A DNA stretch of 64,000 bases from Gammaproteobacteria bacterium (GTDB lineage Bacteria > Pseudomonadota > Gammaproteobacteria > SZUA-140). The first letter of the stretch is position 1, and every line of letters begins with the position of its first letter. The stretch lies in contig WGFB01000051.1 of assembly GCA_015492435.1 (NCBI GenBank), positions 15,100 to 79,099 on the forward strand. The letters run 5' to 3'. Both the position numbers and the translations under genes were made by a program. This document shows positions 34,356 through 56,213 of the stretch, one piece after another. The notes beneath the pieces are model-generated. The model was not told the origin of the DNA and made no database searches. It saw only the letters and a program-made list of their open reading frames with translations.

Positions 34356-34390
34356 AGAAAGAGCCCCGCTCATGGCGGGGCTCTTTTGGG
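34356..34390. terminator. Bidirectional rho-independent terminator between convergent msrAB and the second csp gene
   Basis: AAGAGCCCCGC-TCATG-GCGGGGCTCTT, followed by TTTTGGG on the plus strand and TTTCTTTCCC on the minus strand. Confidence 0.7.
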
Positions 34391-34405
34391 CCGCGATCGC
34401 TTATT

Positions 34406-34609
34406 TTACTGCGGTACGACGTTGACTGCGCTGGGGCCCTTGGCGCCCTGCTCGCTGTCATAGGTTACGGTCTGCCCTTCCGCCAGTGACTTGAATCCGC
34501 TGGCCTGGATGGCGGAGTGATGCACGAAAACATCGGCGCTGCCGTCGGAAGGTGCGATAAAGCCAAAACCCTTGCTGTCGTTAAACCATTTTACTGTACC
34601 TGTAGCCAT
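34406..34609 (-). CDS. Cold-shock protein, CspA family (second paralog)
   Basis: 67 aa; [67 protein letters not shown]. The track ORF 34406..34828 carries a spurious 73-aa N-terminal extension through the AT-rich leader. Confidence 0.93.
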
Positions 34610-34782
34610 TCTGGTTACCTCGTGTGTTGGTGAAATGTAATGTGTGCAGGTTACTGTTGAGAAATTACGGAAGAGATGACGCTTGATACTGCACTGCGAG
34701 GAACTACCGGAACCACTACGATACAAAAATCTGCAACGCCAGCCATCGTACCCCATGGCGGAGCCGAATGCCAGCAATATTT

Positions 34783-47982: not shown

Positions 47983-49050
47983 TCAGGGCGCGGCGAAGCC
48001 GGTAATGGCGTCGCGCAAGGAATCGTCGAGAATGCGGCTTACCTGGTCCATGACCCGGCGCTGAGCCAGGAGCGGTTCGCGGCCGGCCTGTTTGATGTCC
48101 CAGTCCCTGACGCCACGCACCCTGCCCTGCGCGTCCCGCAGGCTGAGCGTCAGCGTGCCCTTCTTCCAGAACCAGCCTTCCCGGCGCCCGAGGTCATCCA
48201 GATCCAGGCGCACGGTCACTACATAGTCCGCCTCCTGTCCCGCGCGGGCAACCTTGAAGCCCGCGCGGGACAGGGCGGCGGACAGGCGGCGCGCCAGTTC
48301 CCCGGCATCCTCCTCTTCCGCCCTGGCCTCCAGGACAATCCTGTCCATGAGGGCATCCCGGTCGGCGGCGAGGCGCGCCAGCGGCCAGGGAGGTGGAATG
48401 CCGCGCCCGCCCCGGTCGATGACCCGCAACACGCTTTGCAGGTCGCGCCGCGCCTCCTGGGCCTCCACGGCGCGGCTGGCCGCCGCGATGGCGGCGAGGA
48501 CATCGCGGCTGGCGCGGGCGCGGTCGACCTCGCGTGCGGTCCTGGCATCGAGTTCGCGGATCTCGTCCCGCAACTGCCGCCGTGCGGGCGCGCGTTCGAG
48601 CACCGCCAGGGCGTGATATTCGCCCTCGTCCGGCGCGCGCCACACATCGGCGATCTCCACGCCGCGGATGACCTGGTGGGTGCGGGCCGTGATTTTGCGC
48701 GTGATGTCCGTCTCGGCGCCCGCCCCGTCCCGGGATGCGGACCCGGCGGATGCCTGGAAGCGCGTTTCGTCATTCAGCTCAGCCTCGATGCGCGCCTCCA
48801 GGGTCAGCGCCAGGGCGGCGCGCGCCCGGTTTTCCGCCTGCGAGCGCGTGGCTCCCGAACCCTGCCCCGTCAGGTATTGCGCAGCCGGCCACCCGGTGGC
48901 CTGGCCATCGACCCATTCAGGCCTGTCGCGCTGTTCCGGTGACGAAGCGCAACCCGTCAGCAACATATGGGCGAGCAACAGCCCCCAGGCAAGAACGGTT
49001 CTGAAAATCAATGTCGCCTCCCTTCGGCCGCCACCTGACCGCCGACCCAA
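47983..49050 (-). CDS. Lipoprotein with LPP20-like N-terminal domain and long Arg/Ala-rich coiled-coil C-terminus
   Basis: Lipobox LLTGC; YLTGQGSGATRSQAENRARAALALTLEARIEAEL resembles the LPP20 family. 355 aa; start uncertain (the track start overlaps the upstream gene by 43 nt). Confidence 0.55.
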   Translation of the reverse strand: MGRRSGGGRREATLIFRTVLAWGLLLAHMLLTGCASSPEQRDRPEWVDGQATGWPAAQYLTGQGSGATRSQAENRARAALALTLEARIEAELNDETRFQASAGSASRDGAGAETDITRKITARTHQVIRGVEIADVWRAPDEGEYHALAVLERAPARRQLRDEIRELDARTAREVDRARASRDVLAAIAAASRAVEAQEARRDLQSVLRVIDRGGRGIPPPWPLARLAADRDALMDRIVLEARAEEEDAGELARRLSAALSRAGFKVARAGQEADYVVTVRLDLDDLGRREGWFWKKGTLTLSLRDAQGRVRGVRDWDIKQAGREPLLAQRRVMDQVSRILDDSLRDAITGFAAP

Positions 49051-50309
49051 TGCAGTGAAATGAAATGCTTGTCCCCTTCCCCCAGGTCGAAGGCGTATTC
49101 CCTCTCGGCGACGGCCTTGCCGGACCTGTCCTTCAATTCAACACGAATTACATGGCTGCCAGGTTCCAGGGGCATGCGGGCGAGGAGAATGCGCCCCGGC
49201 AGGGTCGTCCACGCCCGCGTGTCGGCGCGCTCGCTCAGCACGCCGGCCATGTTGACGATGAATCCCAGGGCATCGTCCTGTTTCCGGGCCGCTTCCGTGG
49301 CCTCGTGCTTGAGTGCGGCGCGCGCGATGGCCCGCGCCAGCAGGACAGGCTTGCGCCGCTCCAGGGTGTATTGCGCGAGGGCGCCGACATCCTCGTACAT
49401 CTGGGTGGCGGCCGCCCCGCCATTTTCATACAGCCTGGCGGAGATCACTTGCGCCGCGCGGGGTACATAGTAGGGCATGGACAGCGTGACCAGCTCGCCA
49501 TCGGGGGTCAGGGCGCTGACGTTCTCCGAAAATTTCAATGGCGCAAGCCCGCTGTGCAGCAGAAAAACCAGTTCGCCGCGCGCCTTCCCGTCTTCTGGCG
49601 CCGGGGCGGCCTGGCCACCCCAGCGCCGCTCATAGTCGGCGTACTCCTCCGTCAGCCCCACGCGCCGCGTCAGGCGCAGCAGGTCGGATTTGAGCTGCGC
49701 GGGCATTGTGGCATGAAACGTCTCCGGATAGCGGGCATAGGCCTGGAAGGCCTTGCGGTAATCGATAAGGGCATCGTCCCATTCGCCCAGGGTTTCATAG
49801 ACCAGGCCCGAGAGATAGCGCGCGAAGGCCGTCCCCGGCAACGCCTTTTCCTCAAGCCCGTTCAGCAGCCCATCCATTTGCAGCACCTCCACCCTGGCAT
49901 CCGCGGGGCGCCCCAGCTCCAGGTAGTTGAGGGCCGCGTAGACATGGAGGAAAATGCGCTCGAAAGGCTCCCCCGTATAGCTGCGCATCATCTCGTTGAC
50001 GGTGAATGCGCCTCCCTGTTCGCTCACGCTGACGGCCATGAGCTGGTCGATGAGTGTCTTGGCCATCTCGAATGCGCGGTTGCTGTCCTCGAAGCGGCCC
50101 GCCATGCGCAACAGCATGGCGCGGTTGAGAAGATAGAGCACCCGGTCGCGCCGGCCATCCAGGTGCTTGTCGAGGATCTCCAGGGCCGCGTCCGGTTTCT
50201 CCGCGGCCATTTCCCGCTCCATCAGGCCCACCCAGTCACTGTAGGTGGCGCATGCGCCCAGCACGGTGAGCAGTGCGGCGGCGATGGCGGGCCGGTATTG
50301 CCATTTCAT
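49008..50309 (-). CDS. TPR-like helical lipoprotein (433 aa), uncharacterised conserved family
   Basis: Signal + lipobox AALLTVLGAC; helical repeat content; sits within a four-gene lipoprotein operon. Confidence 0.55.
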   Translation of the reverse strand: MKWQYRPAIAAALLTVLGACATYSDWVGLMEREMAAEKPDAALEILDKHLDGRRDRVLYLLNRAMLLRMAGRFEDSNRAFEMAKTLIDQLMAVSVSEQGGAFTVNEMMRSYTGEPFERIFLHVYAALNYLELGRPADARVEVLQMDGLLNGLEEKALPGTAFARYLSGLVYETLGEWDDALIDYRKAFQAYARYPETFHATMPAQLKSDLLRLTRRVGLTEEYADYERRWGGQAAPAPEDGKARGELVFLLHSGLAPLKFSENVSALTPDGELVTLSMPYYVPRAAQVISARLYENGGAAATQMYEDVGALAQYTLERRKPVLLARAIARAALKHEATEAARKQDDALGFIVNMAGVLSERADTRAWTTLPGRILLARMPLEPGSHVIRVELKDRSGKAVAEREYAFDLGEGDKHFISLHWVGGQVAAEGRRH

Positions 50310-50345
50310 CGCTTGGCGTTGACAGGAAAGGGCCGCGCCTTCCCG

Positions 50346-50948
50346 TCAGGGCCTGAGACTGGGTTTGGTGACGAATTTCTTGATCTTTTTCTGCCCCACC
50401 CAGACCTTGCGGTTGTCGGCGAGGCTGATGAGCGTCAGGTCCACCTGGTAGAAGCGCACCTGGCGCTTGCCCTCCTTGTCGATGATGGTGTTGATCTCGC
50501 CCTTGAGCATGAAATCGGCGCCGATTTCCTGGCCCATGGGCTTGCGCGTGTCCTCACGGGCGTGCAGATCCTGGTCCATGCGCTCGCCGCGTATTTCGCC
50601 CCGCTCCTCGCTGGAGGCGACAAAGGATACCTGGCCGGAGTTGATGAGGGCCCGCTCCATGTCGCGGACGAAGGTGTTGACGTTGATGTGCTCCTGGCTG
50701 AGATTGCGGATGCCGCCCACGATGACTGTCGGCAGCTTGCCATTCTGTTGCTCGAAGGCGCTGCGCCAGGGACGGGAGAGCACATCGGCGATCATCTCCT
50801 CCGAAACCAGGCGTGAATCCGTGTCGTTCCACTGGCCGCTGAGATCCTGTACTTCCTCCACCTCCATGCGTTCCACCTTGGTGGCGCAGGCGCCCAGAAC
50901 CATCGCGGCTGTCACCATCCATACCAGCATCATCATGCGCGCCATCAT
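50346..50948 (-). CDS. LpoB/COG3417-like lipoprotein
   Basis: Lipobox MVLGAC, then KLPTVIVGGIRNLSQEHINVNTFVRDMERALINSGQVSFV...RQVRFYQVDLTLISLADNRKVWVGQ. The layout resembles LpoB/HP1457-like proteins. Confidence 0.55.
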   Translation of the reverse strand: MMARMMMLVWMVTAAMVLGACATKVERMEVEEVQDLSGQWNDTDSRLVSEEMIADVLSRPWRSAFEQQNGKLPTVIVGGIRNLSQEHINVNTFVRDMERALINSGQVSFVASSEERGEIRGERMDQDLHAREDTRKPMGQEIGADFMLKGEINTIIDKEGKRQVRFYQVDLTLISLADNRKVWVGQKKIKKFVTKPSLRP

Positions 50949-51508
50949 TCGCCTCCTGCCGCCATTCTGTCAAAGATATTCTCGCCGTGGGTGGCCATAT
51001 GGTTGCGGAATCCCTCGTTCATGTCCTTGACGCCGTCGAGGGTTTTCCGCACCTGCTTCAGATCCAGCTCCGCCAGGGAGTACACGACGTTGGTCTTTTT
51101 GTCCCGCCAGCGCCCGATGATGCGGCTGCCGGCGAGATTGACCCGGGAAATGCTGTCGATCTGGCGCGTGATATCCTGTTCCGGCATGGTTTCACCCTTC
51201 ACCCCTGCGCGGGCGTAATCGCTGGAGACGACCTCCATGTACGAAGTCAGAACACGCGCCAGGGCTGCGCGGGCGCGGTTGTCCGCCGTGTCCGTCTGCA
51301 GGGAACGGTCGCCCATGGGCGGGGCGGAACCGACGCCGTGAAACAGGCGCCCCTTTTTGTTCTTGATAACCGCCGGGCCCTTGTTGACCCAGTCGGGCGC
51401 GCCCTTGATGTGCAGATTGCTCTCCACCCGGGTCTGCCCGGCGCAGCCCGCCAGCAGGACAAGGGCGGCGGCCATGGCCCAGGCGGCAGTGAGTTTTGTT
51501 GCTTGCAT
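50945..51508 (-). CDS. LPP20-family lipoprotein
   Basis: The start is taken at ATG 51508 (MQATKLTAAWAMAAALVLLAGCAG, lipobox LLAGC). HGVGSAPPMGDRSLQTDTADNRARAALARVLTSYMEVVSS matches the LPP20 signature. The track's N-terminal extension runs into the heptamer repeat (LVTCILSLV). Confidence 0.7.
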   Translation of the reverse strand: MQATKLTAAWAMAAALVLLAGCAGQTRVESNLHIKGAPDWVNKGPAVIKNKKGRLFHGVGSAPPMGDRSLQTDTADNRARAALARVLTSYMEVVSSDYARAGVKGETMPEQDITRQIDSISRVNLAGSRIIGRWRDKKTNVVYSLAELDLKQVRKTLDGVKDMNEGFRNHMATHGENIFDRMAAGGE

Positions 51509-51595
51509 ATCAGGTTCCCTCTGATGTTTCCGGTTCTGATGCGGGACCGGAGGACCGCCGGACGCGGATTGGGCCGGGCGCATCGCAGCCCAATG

Positions 51596-51696
51596 GGGCG
51601 CCGGGTACAAGATACTAGGTACAAGCGACAAGATGCAAGTTACAAGATGCAAGGCGCGAGGAATGGCAAGCTTTTGTATCTGATTTCTGGCGCCCC
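51596..51696. repeat. Heptamer-repeat element, degenerate copy i flanked by inverted GGGGCGCC/GGCGCCCC
   Basis: GGGTACAAGATACTAGGTACAAGCGACAAGATGCAAGTTACAAGATGCAAGG ... CTTTTGTATCTG. Confidence 0.55.
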
Positions 51697-51728: not shown

Positions 51729-53534
51729 CTAACCGCCGGCCTGGCACGGAGGTTCGCAATTGTCCCAGGCATAGATGGCATGCACGAGATTGCCCTCGTC
51801 ATTATAGGTCACTTCCCGGCACATGGACTGCACCAGGGCGATTCCCCTGCCACTGCTCGTGGTGTTGCCGGCGAGGGACGCCTGCCGGCCCTGATGATCG
51901 AACCCCCGGCCGCTGTCTTCCACCGTGATGTGCAATTCCCCGCCACATCCCTCCGGGAAATGCTCCAGGGCGATGCGGATCCAGCCGTTTTCCAGGGCAT
52001 CCAGTTTCTGCTTTCTCTGCGCGTAATATTCAACGAAGCCTTGGTGATCCCGTTTCAGGGCCGAGTCGAGGCCCAGCACGCCATGCTCCAGGGCATTGGA
52101 GAACAATTCCGCCAGAATGGTGAACAGGCGGTCGCGGTGTTTCTGCATGCCCTGCAGGTCCATCACCAGTTGGGTCAGCAGGGGACGCGGATCGGCTTCC
52201 TTGAGCGTATCGGCATCGAGGCGCATTTCCACTGCCCACTTGGTCGGCAGGCGCATGTTCCCAGAATCGGCGGCCGCCTCGCCGTTGTCCTGTTCCAGCA
52301 ATTCACGGGCGCAGGTGATCTCCACCAGGGTGGTGTCGTCGCTGATGGGGGCGTCCGCGACGAAAGACTCGAAATCCTCCCGGATGGCGTCGAAGCCTTT
52401 TCCTTCCCGGCCCTGCCTCAGGATGCTTTCGGCAAGGCGCCGCGCGCCGTACATCTCCCCCTGGGGGTTGCGCCCCTCCGTGATGCCGTCCGAGCATAGA
52501 TAGAGCCGATCCCCCGGCATGATGTCCACGTGAACCACCGAGGTGTTCAGGGCCTCTCCATCGACGATGCCCAGCGGCAGGGCGCAGGAACTGACGGTCT
52601 CCTTGACCGCCCGGCGCTTGCCGTCCAGCAGCAGCACATCGGGCATGCCGCCATTCCACACGGCAATCTGCTGCCGGTTGACTTCAAAATCAATAATGCT
52701 GGCCGCGCAGAAATTGCCCGTGGGGAGGAGGCGGCGCAGCTTGTTGTTGATCTCGATGAGGATGTCGCCGACCGTGTAGCCCTTGGCCGTCATGGAATAA
52801 AATATCTCCGAGGTGGGCACCGAGCCCACGGCGGCGGACAGCCCGTGCCCGGTCATGTCTCCGATCATGACGCGCATGCCGCCGGCAGGCTTGTGGGCGG
52901 CAAGCAGCAGGTCGCCGTTGAACAGGCCCATGGAGTTTTGCATGTAACGGATGGCGGGGGATTCCAGCGCCTCGGCATGCAGAAATTTCTCGAACAGGTG
53001 GCGGGCCGTCTGCTGCTCGGCCTGCTCCATCTGCTTATGCTCCTCCAGGGCCTGCCTCTGCTGCTCCAGCTTCCAGTACAGGGTGGAGATGCGCAGCATG
53101 GCGCGGATCTTCGCCGATATCAGCTTGAAATTGCAGATGACGCAGGACTTGCTGATGTAATCGTCGCCGCCATCCTCCAGGTAGCGTATCCTGGCGCCGA
53201 CATCCCCATCGGCCGTCATGAGCAGCACGGGCACGTAGCTGCCGGAGAACAGGCGCTTGATCAATCTTGTTGCGTCATGCCCGCCGATGATGGGCATGTC
53301 GTCGTCGACGATCACCAGGTCCGGCTGCTGCCAGTCGCAGGCTTCGATGACCCGGGCGCCGTTGTCCGTCATCCACACCGTGTATCCTTCCTCCGTCAGC
53401 AGCGCCGCCAGCTTGCGGCTGACCAAGGCATCGCTGCTGGCGATCAGTATGGTGTTGACGGCTTCATCGTGGCCATCTTCCCCTGTCTCATGATCCCGCA
53501 GGGTAATTGTTCCAGCCTTGATCATTCTCCACAT
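51729..53534 (-). CDS. Tri-domain partner-switching protein: CheY-like receiver + PP2C/SpoIIE-type Ser phosphatase + C-terminal RsbW-like anti-sigma kinase (HATPase_c) domain
   Basis: Receiver (ILIASSD...LVIVDDDMP...YISKS); PP2C metal-binding GDMTGHGLSAAV and ...CSDGITEG; C-terminal LFTILAELFSNALEHG...HITVEDSGRGF...GRGIALV, which is typical of RsbW/SpoIIAB kinases. 601 aa. Confidence 0.8.
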   Translation of the reverse strand: MWRMIKAGTITLRDHETGEDGHDEAVNTILIASSDALVSRKLAALLTEEGYTVWMTDNGARVIEACDWQQPDLVIVDDDMPIIGGHDATRLIKRLFSGSYVPVLLMTADGDVGARIRYLEDGGDDYISKSCVICNFKLISAKIRAMLRISTLYWKLEQQRQALEEHKQMEQAEQQTARHLFEKFLHAEALESPAIRYMQNSMGLFNGDLLLAAHKPAGGMRVMIGDMTGHGLSAAVGSVPTSEIFYSMTAKGYTVGDILIEINNKLRRLLPTGNFCAASIIDFEVNRQQIAVWNGGMPDVLLLDGKRRAVKETVSSCALPLGIVDGEALNTSVVHVDIMPGDRLYLCSDGITEGRNPQGEMYGARRLAESILRQGREGKGFDAIREDFESFVADAPISDDTTLVEITCARELLEQDNGEAAADSGNMRLPTKWAVEMRLDADTLKEADPRPLLTQLVMDLQGMQKHRDRLFTILAELFSNALEHGVLGLDSALKRDHQGFVEYYAQRKQKLDALENGWIRIALEHFPEGCGGELHITVEDSGRGFDHQGRQASLAGNTTSSGRGIALVQSMCREVTYNDEGNLVHAIYAWDNCEPPCQAGG

Positions 53535-53709: not shown

Positions 53710-54015
53710 TCAATGAATCCTGAACAATTGATTGAAGTGTGCGATTTCCAGGATTTGCCTGATCTCAGGCCGGCATTGCACGATATCGATGTTGGCATTG
53801 TCGTTACCCGCCTGCTCGCGCAGCAGCAGCAACATGCCCAGTGCGGAGCTGTCCATGTACTCCGCGCCCGACATGTCGATGATGTACTTGGCGCCCGGAT
53901 GCTTGATGGATTCGTAGTGCTGGCGGAACTCCTCGTGGGAGTTGAAATCGAAACGCCCCTTGATGTAAATGGTGATTTCCCTGCCATCCTCGGAAATGCG
54001 GGATGTGATGGACAT
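53710..54015 (-). CDS. STAS-domain anti-sigma-factor antagonist (SpoIIAA/RsbV-like)
   Basis: 101 aa; ...IDMSGAEYMDSSALGMLLLLREQA... with the conserved phosphorylatable Ser (DSSALG). Confidence 0.85.
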   Translation of the reverse strand: MSITSRISEDGREITIYIKGRFDFNSHEEFRQHYESIKHPGAKYIIDMSGAEYMDSSALGMLLLLREQAGNDNANIDIVQCRPEIRQILEIAHFNQLFRIH

Positions 54016-54069: not shown

Positions 54070-55314
54070 TCAAAACAGTTCGACCTCGCCCGCATCCATC
54101 GACTGCTGGGCCACGGGCTTGATTTTCTCCAGGTCCAGACTGTCCCGGATCTGGATCAGGCGGTCTCTGATTTCATTCAGGCGCCGCGCGTTTTCACCGG
54201 TGTCACGGCCGTTGCGGACCGTTTCATCCAATTCGCTGTTGAATACCGAAACGAGCTGCTCGATCCCCTCCACACGCCTGCGGGTATGGTTGATGAGCTG
54301 ACTGATGATGTCCTCGAATTGCAGCGACCTGACGGCCTGGTCCACATCGCTGGAGATCTGCCCCGTCAAGCCGGTGACCTCCTCCAGGCTGTGGGTGATG
54401 CGCTCGTTCATTTTGAGAATGTCGCTCATCATGTCGTCCACCTGCGCCTTGGACTGAATGGCGACGCTCATATCCTTGGAAGCCATCTTGGCCACGATTT
54501 CCTTGACCTCGTCCACATTCTGCCGCGACTGCCCCACCACCTGGGTGATTTGATCGGCGAACTGGTTGGAGTTCTGCGACAGTTTGCGCACCTCGTCCGC
54601 CACCACCGCGAAACCGCGTCCGGCCTCCCCCGCCCTGGCGGCCTCGATGGCGGCATTGAGCGCCAGCAGATTGGTCTGATCGGCGATGACCTTGACATCG
54701 CCCAGCAGTTCCACCACTTCGTCCATCTGTTTCACCAGGTCGTCCACGCGCTGGGTCATGGACATGCTTTCCTTGCTGGTCTCGATGATGTGTGCAATGA
54801 AATATTGCAGAATCTTCTCGGTTTCCTGGGTGAACTGCTTGACGCCCAGGTGCTGCTTCTCCTCACCGGCTTCGTCATCCCCCTCCAGGCTGCTGGACAG
54901 GTTGCTGAGCAGGCCGCTGACCACCCGCATCTGGTTCTGGGTCTTTTCATTGAGCCCGCTGAAACTGGCGTTCAGGCTGATCACCGCATCCCGCAGCAAC
55001 TGGTTGACCTGATCGAGTTCGCCATGTATGGATCCCACGCCCTCGCGCACGCTCTTGTCGATCTCCCCTGTAATGCCGCACAATTGCGCGCCCTCCAGCA
55101 TGACCGCGCCCATGTCCGCCGCGGCCGTCCGCGGCCTGTTCTCCCCTCCGGCGGGCAGGGAGCGGGCGGCTTGCCATGCCGAGAATACCCAGCCCGTTGA
55201 CACCAGGGTCAGCAACACCATCGACAGGGGGGAGGCATCCATGACCGCCAGGGCGGCGAGGCTGCCCAGGGTAAGCGCCGATATATGCCAGTGTTTCCCG
55301 AAAAAGGTTTTCAT
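54070..55314 (-). CDS. Methyl-accepting chemotaxis protein with minimal N-terminal region (two TM segments, no periplasmic sensor)
   Basis: MCP signalling domain (...[39 protein letters not shown]...). Confidence 0.88.
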
Positions 55315-55688
55315 TTATTCTCCTTTCTCTCCATGTGTAGCGCGCATCCCGCCTGGCAGGATGCTCCGTCCCTGGCGTGACAGGCACTTCTCCCCCAGTG
55401 CGATGGCGTGCGGCCTCCATGGCACATATCGGCATGGGGCCTTGATCCCTTTAAGAGTTCTCTGACATGGCGGGAAGAGCCAAAAGCGATGGGAAACGGA
55501 GGGTTCCAGCGCGGGCAGCGCCCGCGCAAACGGGCGGCAAGCCCAGGCCGCGGGCATTCTCAGAAAGTGTGATGGTTCCGGAAAAGCCGCATCCTTGCTA
55601 TGGGTCACCCCCCGGCCCTGCCCGGGGAGTTTGGTCTGGCTGGTTCGTCATCCTCTGCCGATGACGAAGGGACGTTCAGGCGGTCCTT

Positions 55689-55910
55689 TCAGTCCCTGTC
55701 CGCGGGGGAGTTGATCTCGAGTTCGTTGCGCAGGATGGTCAGCTCCCGTGGGGCCTGGATGCTGATCCGCACCTGGCCAGGATTGATCTTCCTGATATGA
55801 AACTCGAACGGCCCGTCACGGAACAGCTCCGCCACCGTCATGTTCGGATCGATGTTTTCAGAGGGATAAATCTGTATCGATTCTCCAGCACGCCGTGTTA
55901 AAACCAACAT
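55689..55910 (-). CDS. CsrA/RsmA-family RNA-binding translational regulator, divergent paralog with an ~18-aa insertion in the beta2-beta3 region
   Basis: MLVLTRRAGESIQI...GQVRISIQAPRELTILRNELE vs E. coli CsrA MLILTRRVGETLMI...[21 protein letters not shown]. The insertion is YPSENIDPNMTVAELFRDGPFEFHIRKI. Confidence 0.75.
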   Translation of the reverse strand: MLVLTRRAGESIQIYPSENIDPNMTVAELFRDGPFEFHIRKINPGQVRISIQAPRELTILRNELEINSPADRD

Positions 55911-56213
55911 TTGCTAGTTGCTCCTACGTTATTTATAGACACATATGATATATATGAGATATAACATTATATCAGAGATTACTTACACAAGGAATCCACC
56001 GTTCCAAAGTGGTGCGATTCCAGGTTGTTGCCACCATCGGATTTACAGTGACTTACCATTCAGTATGCTACTCCGGCAACCACATTGTAAATTGATGGTG
56101 CAATGCGTGGTCCCCGCCAGGGTCGCCCGATTCTGTTCAGGCAGCCATCCACCCTGATGTTCCCTGGCGGAGAATTCCATGCCCGGCCTGTGGAAATCGC
56201 CCCGGCCGGCCAC

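Follow-up and report, generated by a model that had tools for sequence, protein, structure and literature searches.

A CsrA-family protein of the RsmN/RsmF type encoded by an uncultured gammaproteobacterium

To our knowledge, RsmN/RsmF is the only CsrA-family protein with a rearranged fold. In the Pseudomonas aeruginosa RsmN described by Morris et al., a 16-residue helical insertion lies between β2 and β3 and the C-terminal helix has been lost; the dimer consists of two folded monomers that are not swapped, and the chain has a conserved Arg62 (Arg44 of RsmA), an Arg8-Glu64 salt bridge, and a Gly-Ile motif ending the helix (PMC3791407). RsmN/RsmF is antagonised by small RNAs such as RsmV, RsmY, and RsmZ, and RsmF needs two sites for tight binding (bioRxiv 10.1101/315341). 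RsmN-like proteins have been described as confined to Pseudomonas and as having arisen there by duplication of rsmA (PMC3791407, PMC7366521), and a 2025 preprint terms the extra helix 'unique to RsmN'; no description of RsmN-like proteins outside Pseudomonas was found in the literature we searched. Two further systems bear on the locus considered here: the CsrA-FliW pair of Bacillus/Geobacillus (PDB 5DMB), in which fliW adjoins csrA and CsrA carries a C-terminal extension, and the HptB-HsbR-HsbA partner-switching pathway of P. aeruginosa, which feeds into Gac/Rsm through sRNA by modulating RsmY levels (PMC8543379).

The gene in question lies on the minus strand of a 64-kb window (by which we mean the whole stretch of DNA analysed) from an uncultured, non-Pseudomonas gammaproteobacterium known from vent-type metagenomes. 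An ATG-started open reading frame spans exactly 55689-55910 (minus strand) and encodes a product of 73 amino acids followed by a stop codon (MLVLTRRAGESIQIYPSENIDPNMTVAELFRDGPFEFHIRKINPGQVRISIQAPRELTILRNELEINSPADRD). A reading of the letters by a model (the sequence-only reading) had called both the N-terminus and the C-terminal strands CsrA-like, and Pfam bears this out: the CsrA model PF02599 scores the product at 47.9 bits, above its cut-off of 27, although in two stretches rather than one. It shares with canonical CsrA/RsmA/RsmE (PDB 1Y00, 1VPZ, 2JPP) this Pfam match, the N-terminal MLxLTRRxGE strand, the GxQV+IGIxAP strands, and the essential arginine ahead of the E-x-L motif; against the NCBIfam equivalogs for canonical CsrA (TIGR00202 and NF002469) it reaches only 39.8-40.2 bits, below the cut-offs of 70.1 and 73, and the match is again split in two. 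Comparison with the orthologs of six other assemblies gave dN/dS values of 0.01-0.09 in 5 pairs, with synonymous sites near saturation; in the sixth pair (L023) dS was saturated and yields no ratio. Because dN/dS is low and the predicted fold confident (see below), a spurious open reading frame can be rejected: the gene is real and under strong purifying selection.

An insertion between β2 and β3 covers codons 15-34 (YPSENIDPNMTVAELFRDGP; 55809-55868, minus strand) and is predicted to form an α-helix at about residues 26-32, followed by a G33-P34-F35 turn. When canonical CsrA/RsmA is aligned to a profile of the gene's homologs it occupies positions 1-14 and 35-73 only, with an offset of 17 residues, and the net insertion is thus 17 amino acids; the insertion had been recognised from the letters alone, but its length had been put at 18. 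RsmF, in contrast, follows the same profile in one colinear stretch from 2 to 64, straight through positions 15-34 that canonical CsrA skips. A sequence search of PDB chains gives the same picture: RsmF (4K59) and RsmN (4KJI, 4KRW) come out on top and align across residues 2-65, broken by just one gap of one residue, whereas the canonical CsrA/RsmA/RsmE chains match over residues 40-66 only. Identity to RsmN/RsmF is about 31-33%, and the family-profile scores of RsmF and RsmA are close (39.5 versus 36.2), with few bits contributed by the insertion itself. Common descent of the insertion with that of RsmN/F rests on its position, its length, the helix, the G-x-I motif, and bridging sequences, and not on strong sequence similarity.

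A first AF2 run with 16 close homologs (pLDDT 55.9, helix H26-32) was discarded and repeated with 117 homologs. The resulting monomer model has a pLDDT of 89 and the element order of RsmN/RsmF, namely β1(2-7), β2(12-16), α(26-29), β3(36-43), β4(46-52), and β5(57-61), with a pLDDT above 90 for the inserted helix H26-29. Structure comparison of this model gave 9.2 for RsmN (4kji_A, 64/64 residues aligned) but only 2.3 for canonical RsmA (1vpz) and 2.2 for the FliW-bound CsrA (5dmb); the fold predicted for the chain can accordingly be superposed on that of RsmN/F but not on that of canonical CsrA. The C-terminal α-helix of RsmA/CsrA is missing: nine residues follow β5, with a pLDDT of about 50, and two of them are prolines or next to prolines. 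The model describes a monomer that is predicted to fold confidently alone, which fits a docked, non-swapped homodimer but does not show that dimer.

The residues by which RsmN contacts RNA also have counterparts here, as judged by alignment. L2 and L4 correspond to RsmN L4 and L6, which stack on the GGA guanines, and these β1 residues are kept; T5 corresponds to S7, and R61 to R62. The pair R6-E63 is equivalent to RsmN R8-E64. None of R61, R6, and E63 varies among 16 close homologs, in which the RNA-contact and signature residues as a whole, including G33-x-F35, are invariant or nearly so. Of 243 family members retrieved, 235 have R6, 235 have R61, and 193 have E63. The turn at the end of the helix resembles the Gly-Ile motif of RsmN without being identical to it: the window protein has G33-P34-F35, while GPI is found in 152 of the 243 members and other G-x-I variants are common.

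The sequence, the fold predicted from it, and the signature residues point the same way, and we conclude that the window protein belongs to the RsmN/RsmF structural subtype of the CsrA family, and the comparison with RsmN/RsmF that the sequence-only reading had offered is borne out on all three counts. The relationship to Pseudomonas rsmN does not amount to orthology, because identity to the P. aeruginosa protein (PDB 4KJI, 4KRW, 4K59) is so low and the locus is different: P. aeruginosa RsmN is encoded between PA5183 and PA5184, whereas the flanking genes here encode an α/β-hydrolase and either a methyl-accepting chemotaxis protein (MCP) or lipoproteins. The turn differs as well, being G-G-I in P. 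aeruginosa RsmN, G-P-F in the window protein, and G-P-I in the family consensus, and so does the host, which lies outside Pseudomonas and is uncultured.

How widely is this architecture distributed? A profile search of 1.84 billion cluster representatives recovered 223 clusters at 50% identity (E≤1e-10), and nearly all of the best 150 of those clusters are colinear across profile positions 1-65; a second search, of a collection clustered at 90%, recovered 413 clusters at E≤1e-8. The insertion region is filled in every one of the 243 sequences retrieved (19-20 of 20 positions in 239, 11-17 in the remaining 4), and the median C-terminal tail of these relatives is 7 residues. Cluster P0032 bridges the two proteins, sharing 48-51% identity with P. 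aeruginosa RsmF (across 63 residues) and 48% with the window protein, so that both can be placed in one family. The family is mostly metagenomic, and a cluster look-up for names of its members returned none. Among species-representative genomes, the close relatives found all came from MAGs of Gammaproteobacteria and a single MAG of Thiogranum (L019-L030), a range that the narrow search patterns understate. Neither the plasmid nor the phage collections searched held a match or an insertion-bearing homolog, and a scan of viral contigs returned two canonical-length CsrA matches and no insertion-bearing homolog.

Several family members have unusual forms or surroundings. Tandem CsrA-CsrA fusions occur among the insertion-bearing homologs (P0018, P0027, P0114, P0130) and might represent the RsmN-type dimer in the form of one chain. 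In seven others (P0068, P0073, P0079, P0082, P0101, P0117, P0227) an RsmN-type CsrA domain is followed by a C-terminal XRE-type helix-turn-helix (Pfam PF01381/PF13560 in P0227), and to judge from the sequence such a chain would combine an RNA-binding with a DNA-binding module. Distant members adjoin IS66 genes, an AraC regulator, or TIR genes, and one degenerate member with a shortened β3-β4 region (L030, 3659-6195) lies directly downstream of IS66-family transposase genes.

Returning to the window, the csrA-like gene is preceded by an AT-rich intergenic region (55911-56213) with a GC content of 0.44-0.48 against about 0.62 for the window as a whole; the roughly 300 bp of AT-rich DNA noted from the letters is thus confirmed (GC 0.44 at 55850-56149). 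Only the proximal ~110 nt of this spacer are conserved among the closest species. They include a Shine-Dalgarno sequence, AGGAG, at 55921-55925 (minus strand), 10 nt upstream of the ATG and conserved in both L019 and L020. Further upstream, a putative σ70 promoter can be read from the sequence at 55966-55994 (minus strand), consisting of TTCCTT, a 17-nt spacer, and TGATATAAT (an extended -10), and this block is conserved in the window, L019, and L020; its weak -35 kept it from being called by a consensus promoter scanner. The GGA of the Shine-Dalgarno sequence is the sole GGA in the predicted 5′ UTR, and the predicted 5′ UTR folds no better than shuffled sequence (z -0.05).

Downstream, and likewise on the minus strand, lie three signalling genes encoding an MCP (54070-55314; Pfam MCPsignal, 1.8e-31), a STAS protein resembling anti-sigma-factor antagonists (53710-54015; Pfam STAS, 5.5e-14, with a TIGR00377 score of 50.7 bits just under the cut-off of 53.45), and a REC-PP2C(SpoIIE)-HATPase_c_2 protein of HsbR-like architecture (51729-53534; Pfam Response_reg, SpoIIE, and HATPase_c_2). 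The csrA-like gene had been placed right after this cluster; adjacency holds but the order does not, since all of these genes are on the minus strand and the csrA-like gene is therefore upstream, 5′ of the cluster, across a gap of 374 bp. Within that gap, just past the csrA-like stop codon, two stable hairpins without a U-tract occupy 55607-55667 (minus strand; 55645-55667 and 55607-55630; RNA fold -43.2 kcal/mol, z -2.45), and a terminator scanner flags 55610-55627 on the plus strand. The MCP gene is preceded, some 112 nt ahead of its start, by a σ28 (FliA)-type promoter motif, TAAAGGGATCAAGGCCCCATGCCGATAT (TAAA-N16-GCCGATAT; 55426-55453, minus strand), which is the single match in the window where 0.01 would be expected by chance and is kept in L019 and L020 as TAAAGGGA...GCCGATAA. 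The motif suggests that the MCP, STAS, and REC/PP2C/kinase genes form a flagellar-class operon.

Comparison with other species shows that the linkage of this module to the csrA-like gene is not general. Two related species, L019 and L020, keep the entire order of hydrolase, csrA-like, MCP, STAS, REC-PP2C-kinase, LPP20-like, LpoB-like, and TPR lipoprotein genes. In the related genomes L018, L021, and L023, whose csrA-like proteins are 76-84% identical, the LPP20-like gene follows directly and the three-gene signalling module is missing, although the other flanking genes are retained; nor is there an MCP-STAS-kinase module beside the csrA-like gene in any of L024-L030. Given a 374-bp spacer with hairpins, a conserved σ28-type motif of its own, and a linkage that is not conserved, we take the module to be transcribed separately and to have been inserted in, or kept by, no more than a part of the lineage; in the window lineage it sits between the csrA-like gene and the lipoprotein cluster. 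The place of the csrA-like gene next to the signalling cluster is a lineage-specific accident and not a conserved partnership.

Other neighbours behave differently. A four-gene lipoprotein cluster (LPP20-like, LpoB-like, TPR, and LPP20-like) is a stable downstream neighbour across species, at 47983-51652 (minus strand) in the window, 6758-10186 in L021, and 6739-10244 in L023. In the P0009-P0015 clade, a 64-residue open reading frame of the PA3496 family (NF046101) lies 57-66 bp upstream of the csrA-like gene (L007, 7743-7937; L013, 3900-4094; L024, 2415-2606; L025, 3326-3517), and the two may form a conserved two-gene unit. A candidate STAS/PP2C pairing in the same clade was discarded: the 101-residue protein encoded beside the stand-alone PP2C is a 2Fe-2S ferredoxin and not a STAS protein.

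The sequence-only reading had proposed looking in the genome for a canonical csrA, for CsrB/RsmZ-like sRNAs, and for fliW; the part of this search that concerns the 64-kb window was run and found none of them. With B. subtilis FliW as the query, tblastn of the window gave nothing below E 7.9, and tblastn with canonical CsrA/RsmA and with B. subtilis CsrA recovered only the gene itself. Rfam, searched at gathering thresholds across the window and with a limit of E≤5 in the surroundings of the gene, yielded no Csr/Rsm sRNA or other relevant RNA. (The same collection gave a cspA thermoregulator match at 34356-34740 on the minus strand, with 87 bits against a gathering score of 78.) A scan of the window for GGA/ANGGA density placed all of the densest stretches in coding sequence and found no GGA-dense intergenic region, and there is no GacA-type element in the 64 kb. 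The proposed sRNA antagonist is thus unobserved, since the window holds neither a Csr/Rsm sRNA, nor a GGA-dense intergenic region, nor a GacA-type element.

These results allow us to weigh other explanations of the locus. The neighbourhood had raised the possibility of protein-based antagonism, in which the csrA-like protein would be a paralog sequestered FliW-style by the adjacent STAS or PP2C/kinase protein, with partner switching gating its RNA binding. The arrangement on one strand, only 374 bp upstream of the MCP-STAS-REC/PP2C/HATPase cluster and kept in L019 and L020, would suit such an antagonism, as would a stand-alone PP2C gene 0.6-3 kb away in a more distant clade and the fact that HptB-HsbR-HsbA does feed Gac/Rsm in P. 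aeruginosa, but there the connection runs through sRNA levels (PMC8543379). Against the proposal speak the σ28-type promoter motif that the downstream genes have to themselves, synteny (L018, L021, and L023 have no module next to the csrA-like gene), the lack of fliW in the window, and the antagonism of characterised RsmN/RsmF by sRNAs, and we consider it highly improbable. Although the window protein and the CsrA of the CsrA-FliW pair are both CsrA-family proteins, neither an adjoining fliW nor the C-terminal extension is found in the window; with a tail of 9 residues after β5, the window protein does not have the extension that FliW uses. The locus resembles HptB-HsbR-HsbA in that REC-PP2C-kinase and STAS proteins are encoded here behind a flagellar-class σ28-type promoter, but an MCP gene leads the unit, which adjoins a csrA-like gene in the window, L019, and L020 alone. 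By analogy with that pathway, an sRNA-level link between the module and the csrA-like protein is conceivable; the window sequence does not indicate one.

CsrA homologs are carried on mobile elements in other bacteria, and the csrA-like gene might likewise be an accessory, island-borne regulator that controls the neighbouring cassette locally through the leader of the MCP operon. The spot is variable, with either the MCP module or none downstream and an extra 2-kb segment upstream in L023; some distant relatives adjoin IS66 or TIR genes; and three CANGGAYG sites are clustered within 362 nt at 55236-55597 (minus strand), a stretch that runs from the spacer through the predicted MCP leader into the early part of the MCP gene and where about 0.09 would be expected by a post hoc estimate. 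However, none of this trio is conserved in L019 or L020, and it is therefore probably due to chance; across the window as a whole the motif shows no enrichment (32 found versus 28±5 expected); the csrA-like gene occurs both where the cassette is found and where it is missing; its surroundings in the window contain neither an integrase nor a transposase; and the plasmid, phage, and viral collections are without an insertion-bearing homolog. We regard an island-borne regulator as improbable, if somewhat less so than sequestration. A better but still unlikely alternative is that the csrA-like protein is the organism's only CsrA-family regulator and has come to do, in this lineage, the global work of canonical CsrA. 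A conserved chromosomal position in several species and very strong purifying selection are what one would expect of a core regulator, and no canonical csrA was found in the 64-kb window; but the window is a small part of the genome, so that absence there says little, canonical csrA is, as a matter of general knowledge, nearly universal in Gammaproteobacteria, and RsmN always accompanies RsmA in Pseudomonas (PMC7366521).

We consider it very probable, taken as a whole, that the gene encodes an RsmN/RsmF-type CsrA that forms an RsmN-like dimer, acts at GGA sites in mRNA leaders, is titrated by sRNA, and is transcribed alone, with the downstream module as a separate σ28-type unit. In this RsmN-like mechanism, the helix between β2 and β3 would replace the C-terminal helix of canonical CsrA to give a compact β1-β2-α-β3-β4-β5 chain, and, by analogy with RsmN, two such compact units would dock as a dimer with two RNA-binding faces. 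The dimer would recognise ANGGA/CANGGAYG sequences close to the ribosome-binding sites of mRNA leaders and thereby alter translation or stability, probably needing two RNA sites for tight binding as RsmF does. It may be titrated, as P. aeruginosa RsmN/RsmF is, by GGA-rich small RNAs from other loci of the genome. Transcription of the csrA-like gene alone would start from the putative σ70-type promoter in the AT-rich spacer, and the MCP-STAS-REC/PP2C/kinase genes downstream would be the separate σ28-type unit inserted there in this lineage.

The same architecture, strongly conserved, in unrelated uncultured gammaproteobacteria widens the known range of the RsmN/RsmF fold, and this wider distribution is the modestly new element of our analysis. 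Distribution outside Pseudomonas also calls into question an origin restricted to that genus. We favour, with some reserve, the view that the RsmN/RsmF fold is a branch of a large, older CsrA subfamily that extends across uncultured Gammaproteobacteria and possibly beyond, includes tandem and HTH(XRE) forms, and did not arise by a recent, Pseudomonas-specific duplication of rsmA, and that the window gene is a core gene kept vertically in the vent lineage. For annotation, such genes should be labelled RsmN/RsmF-type and not plain CsrA, and neighbouring signalling genes should be taken as partners only where synteny is conserved. The family also offers diverse sequences, natural tandem and HTH fusions among them, from which the role of the relocated helix can be worked out.
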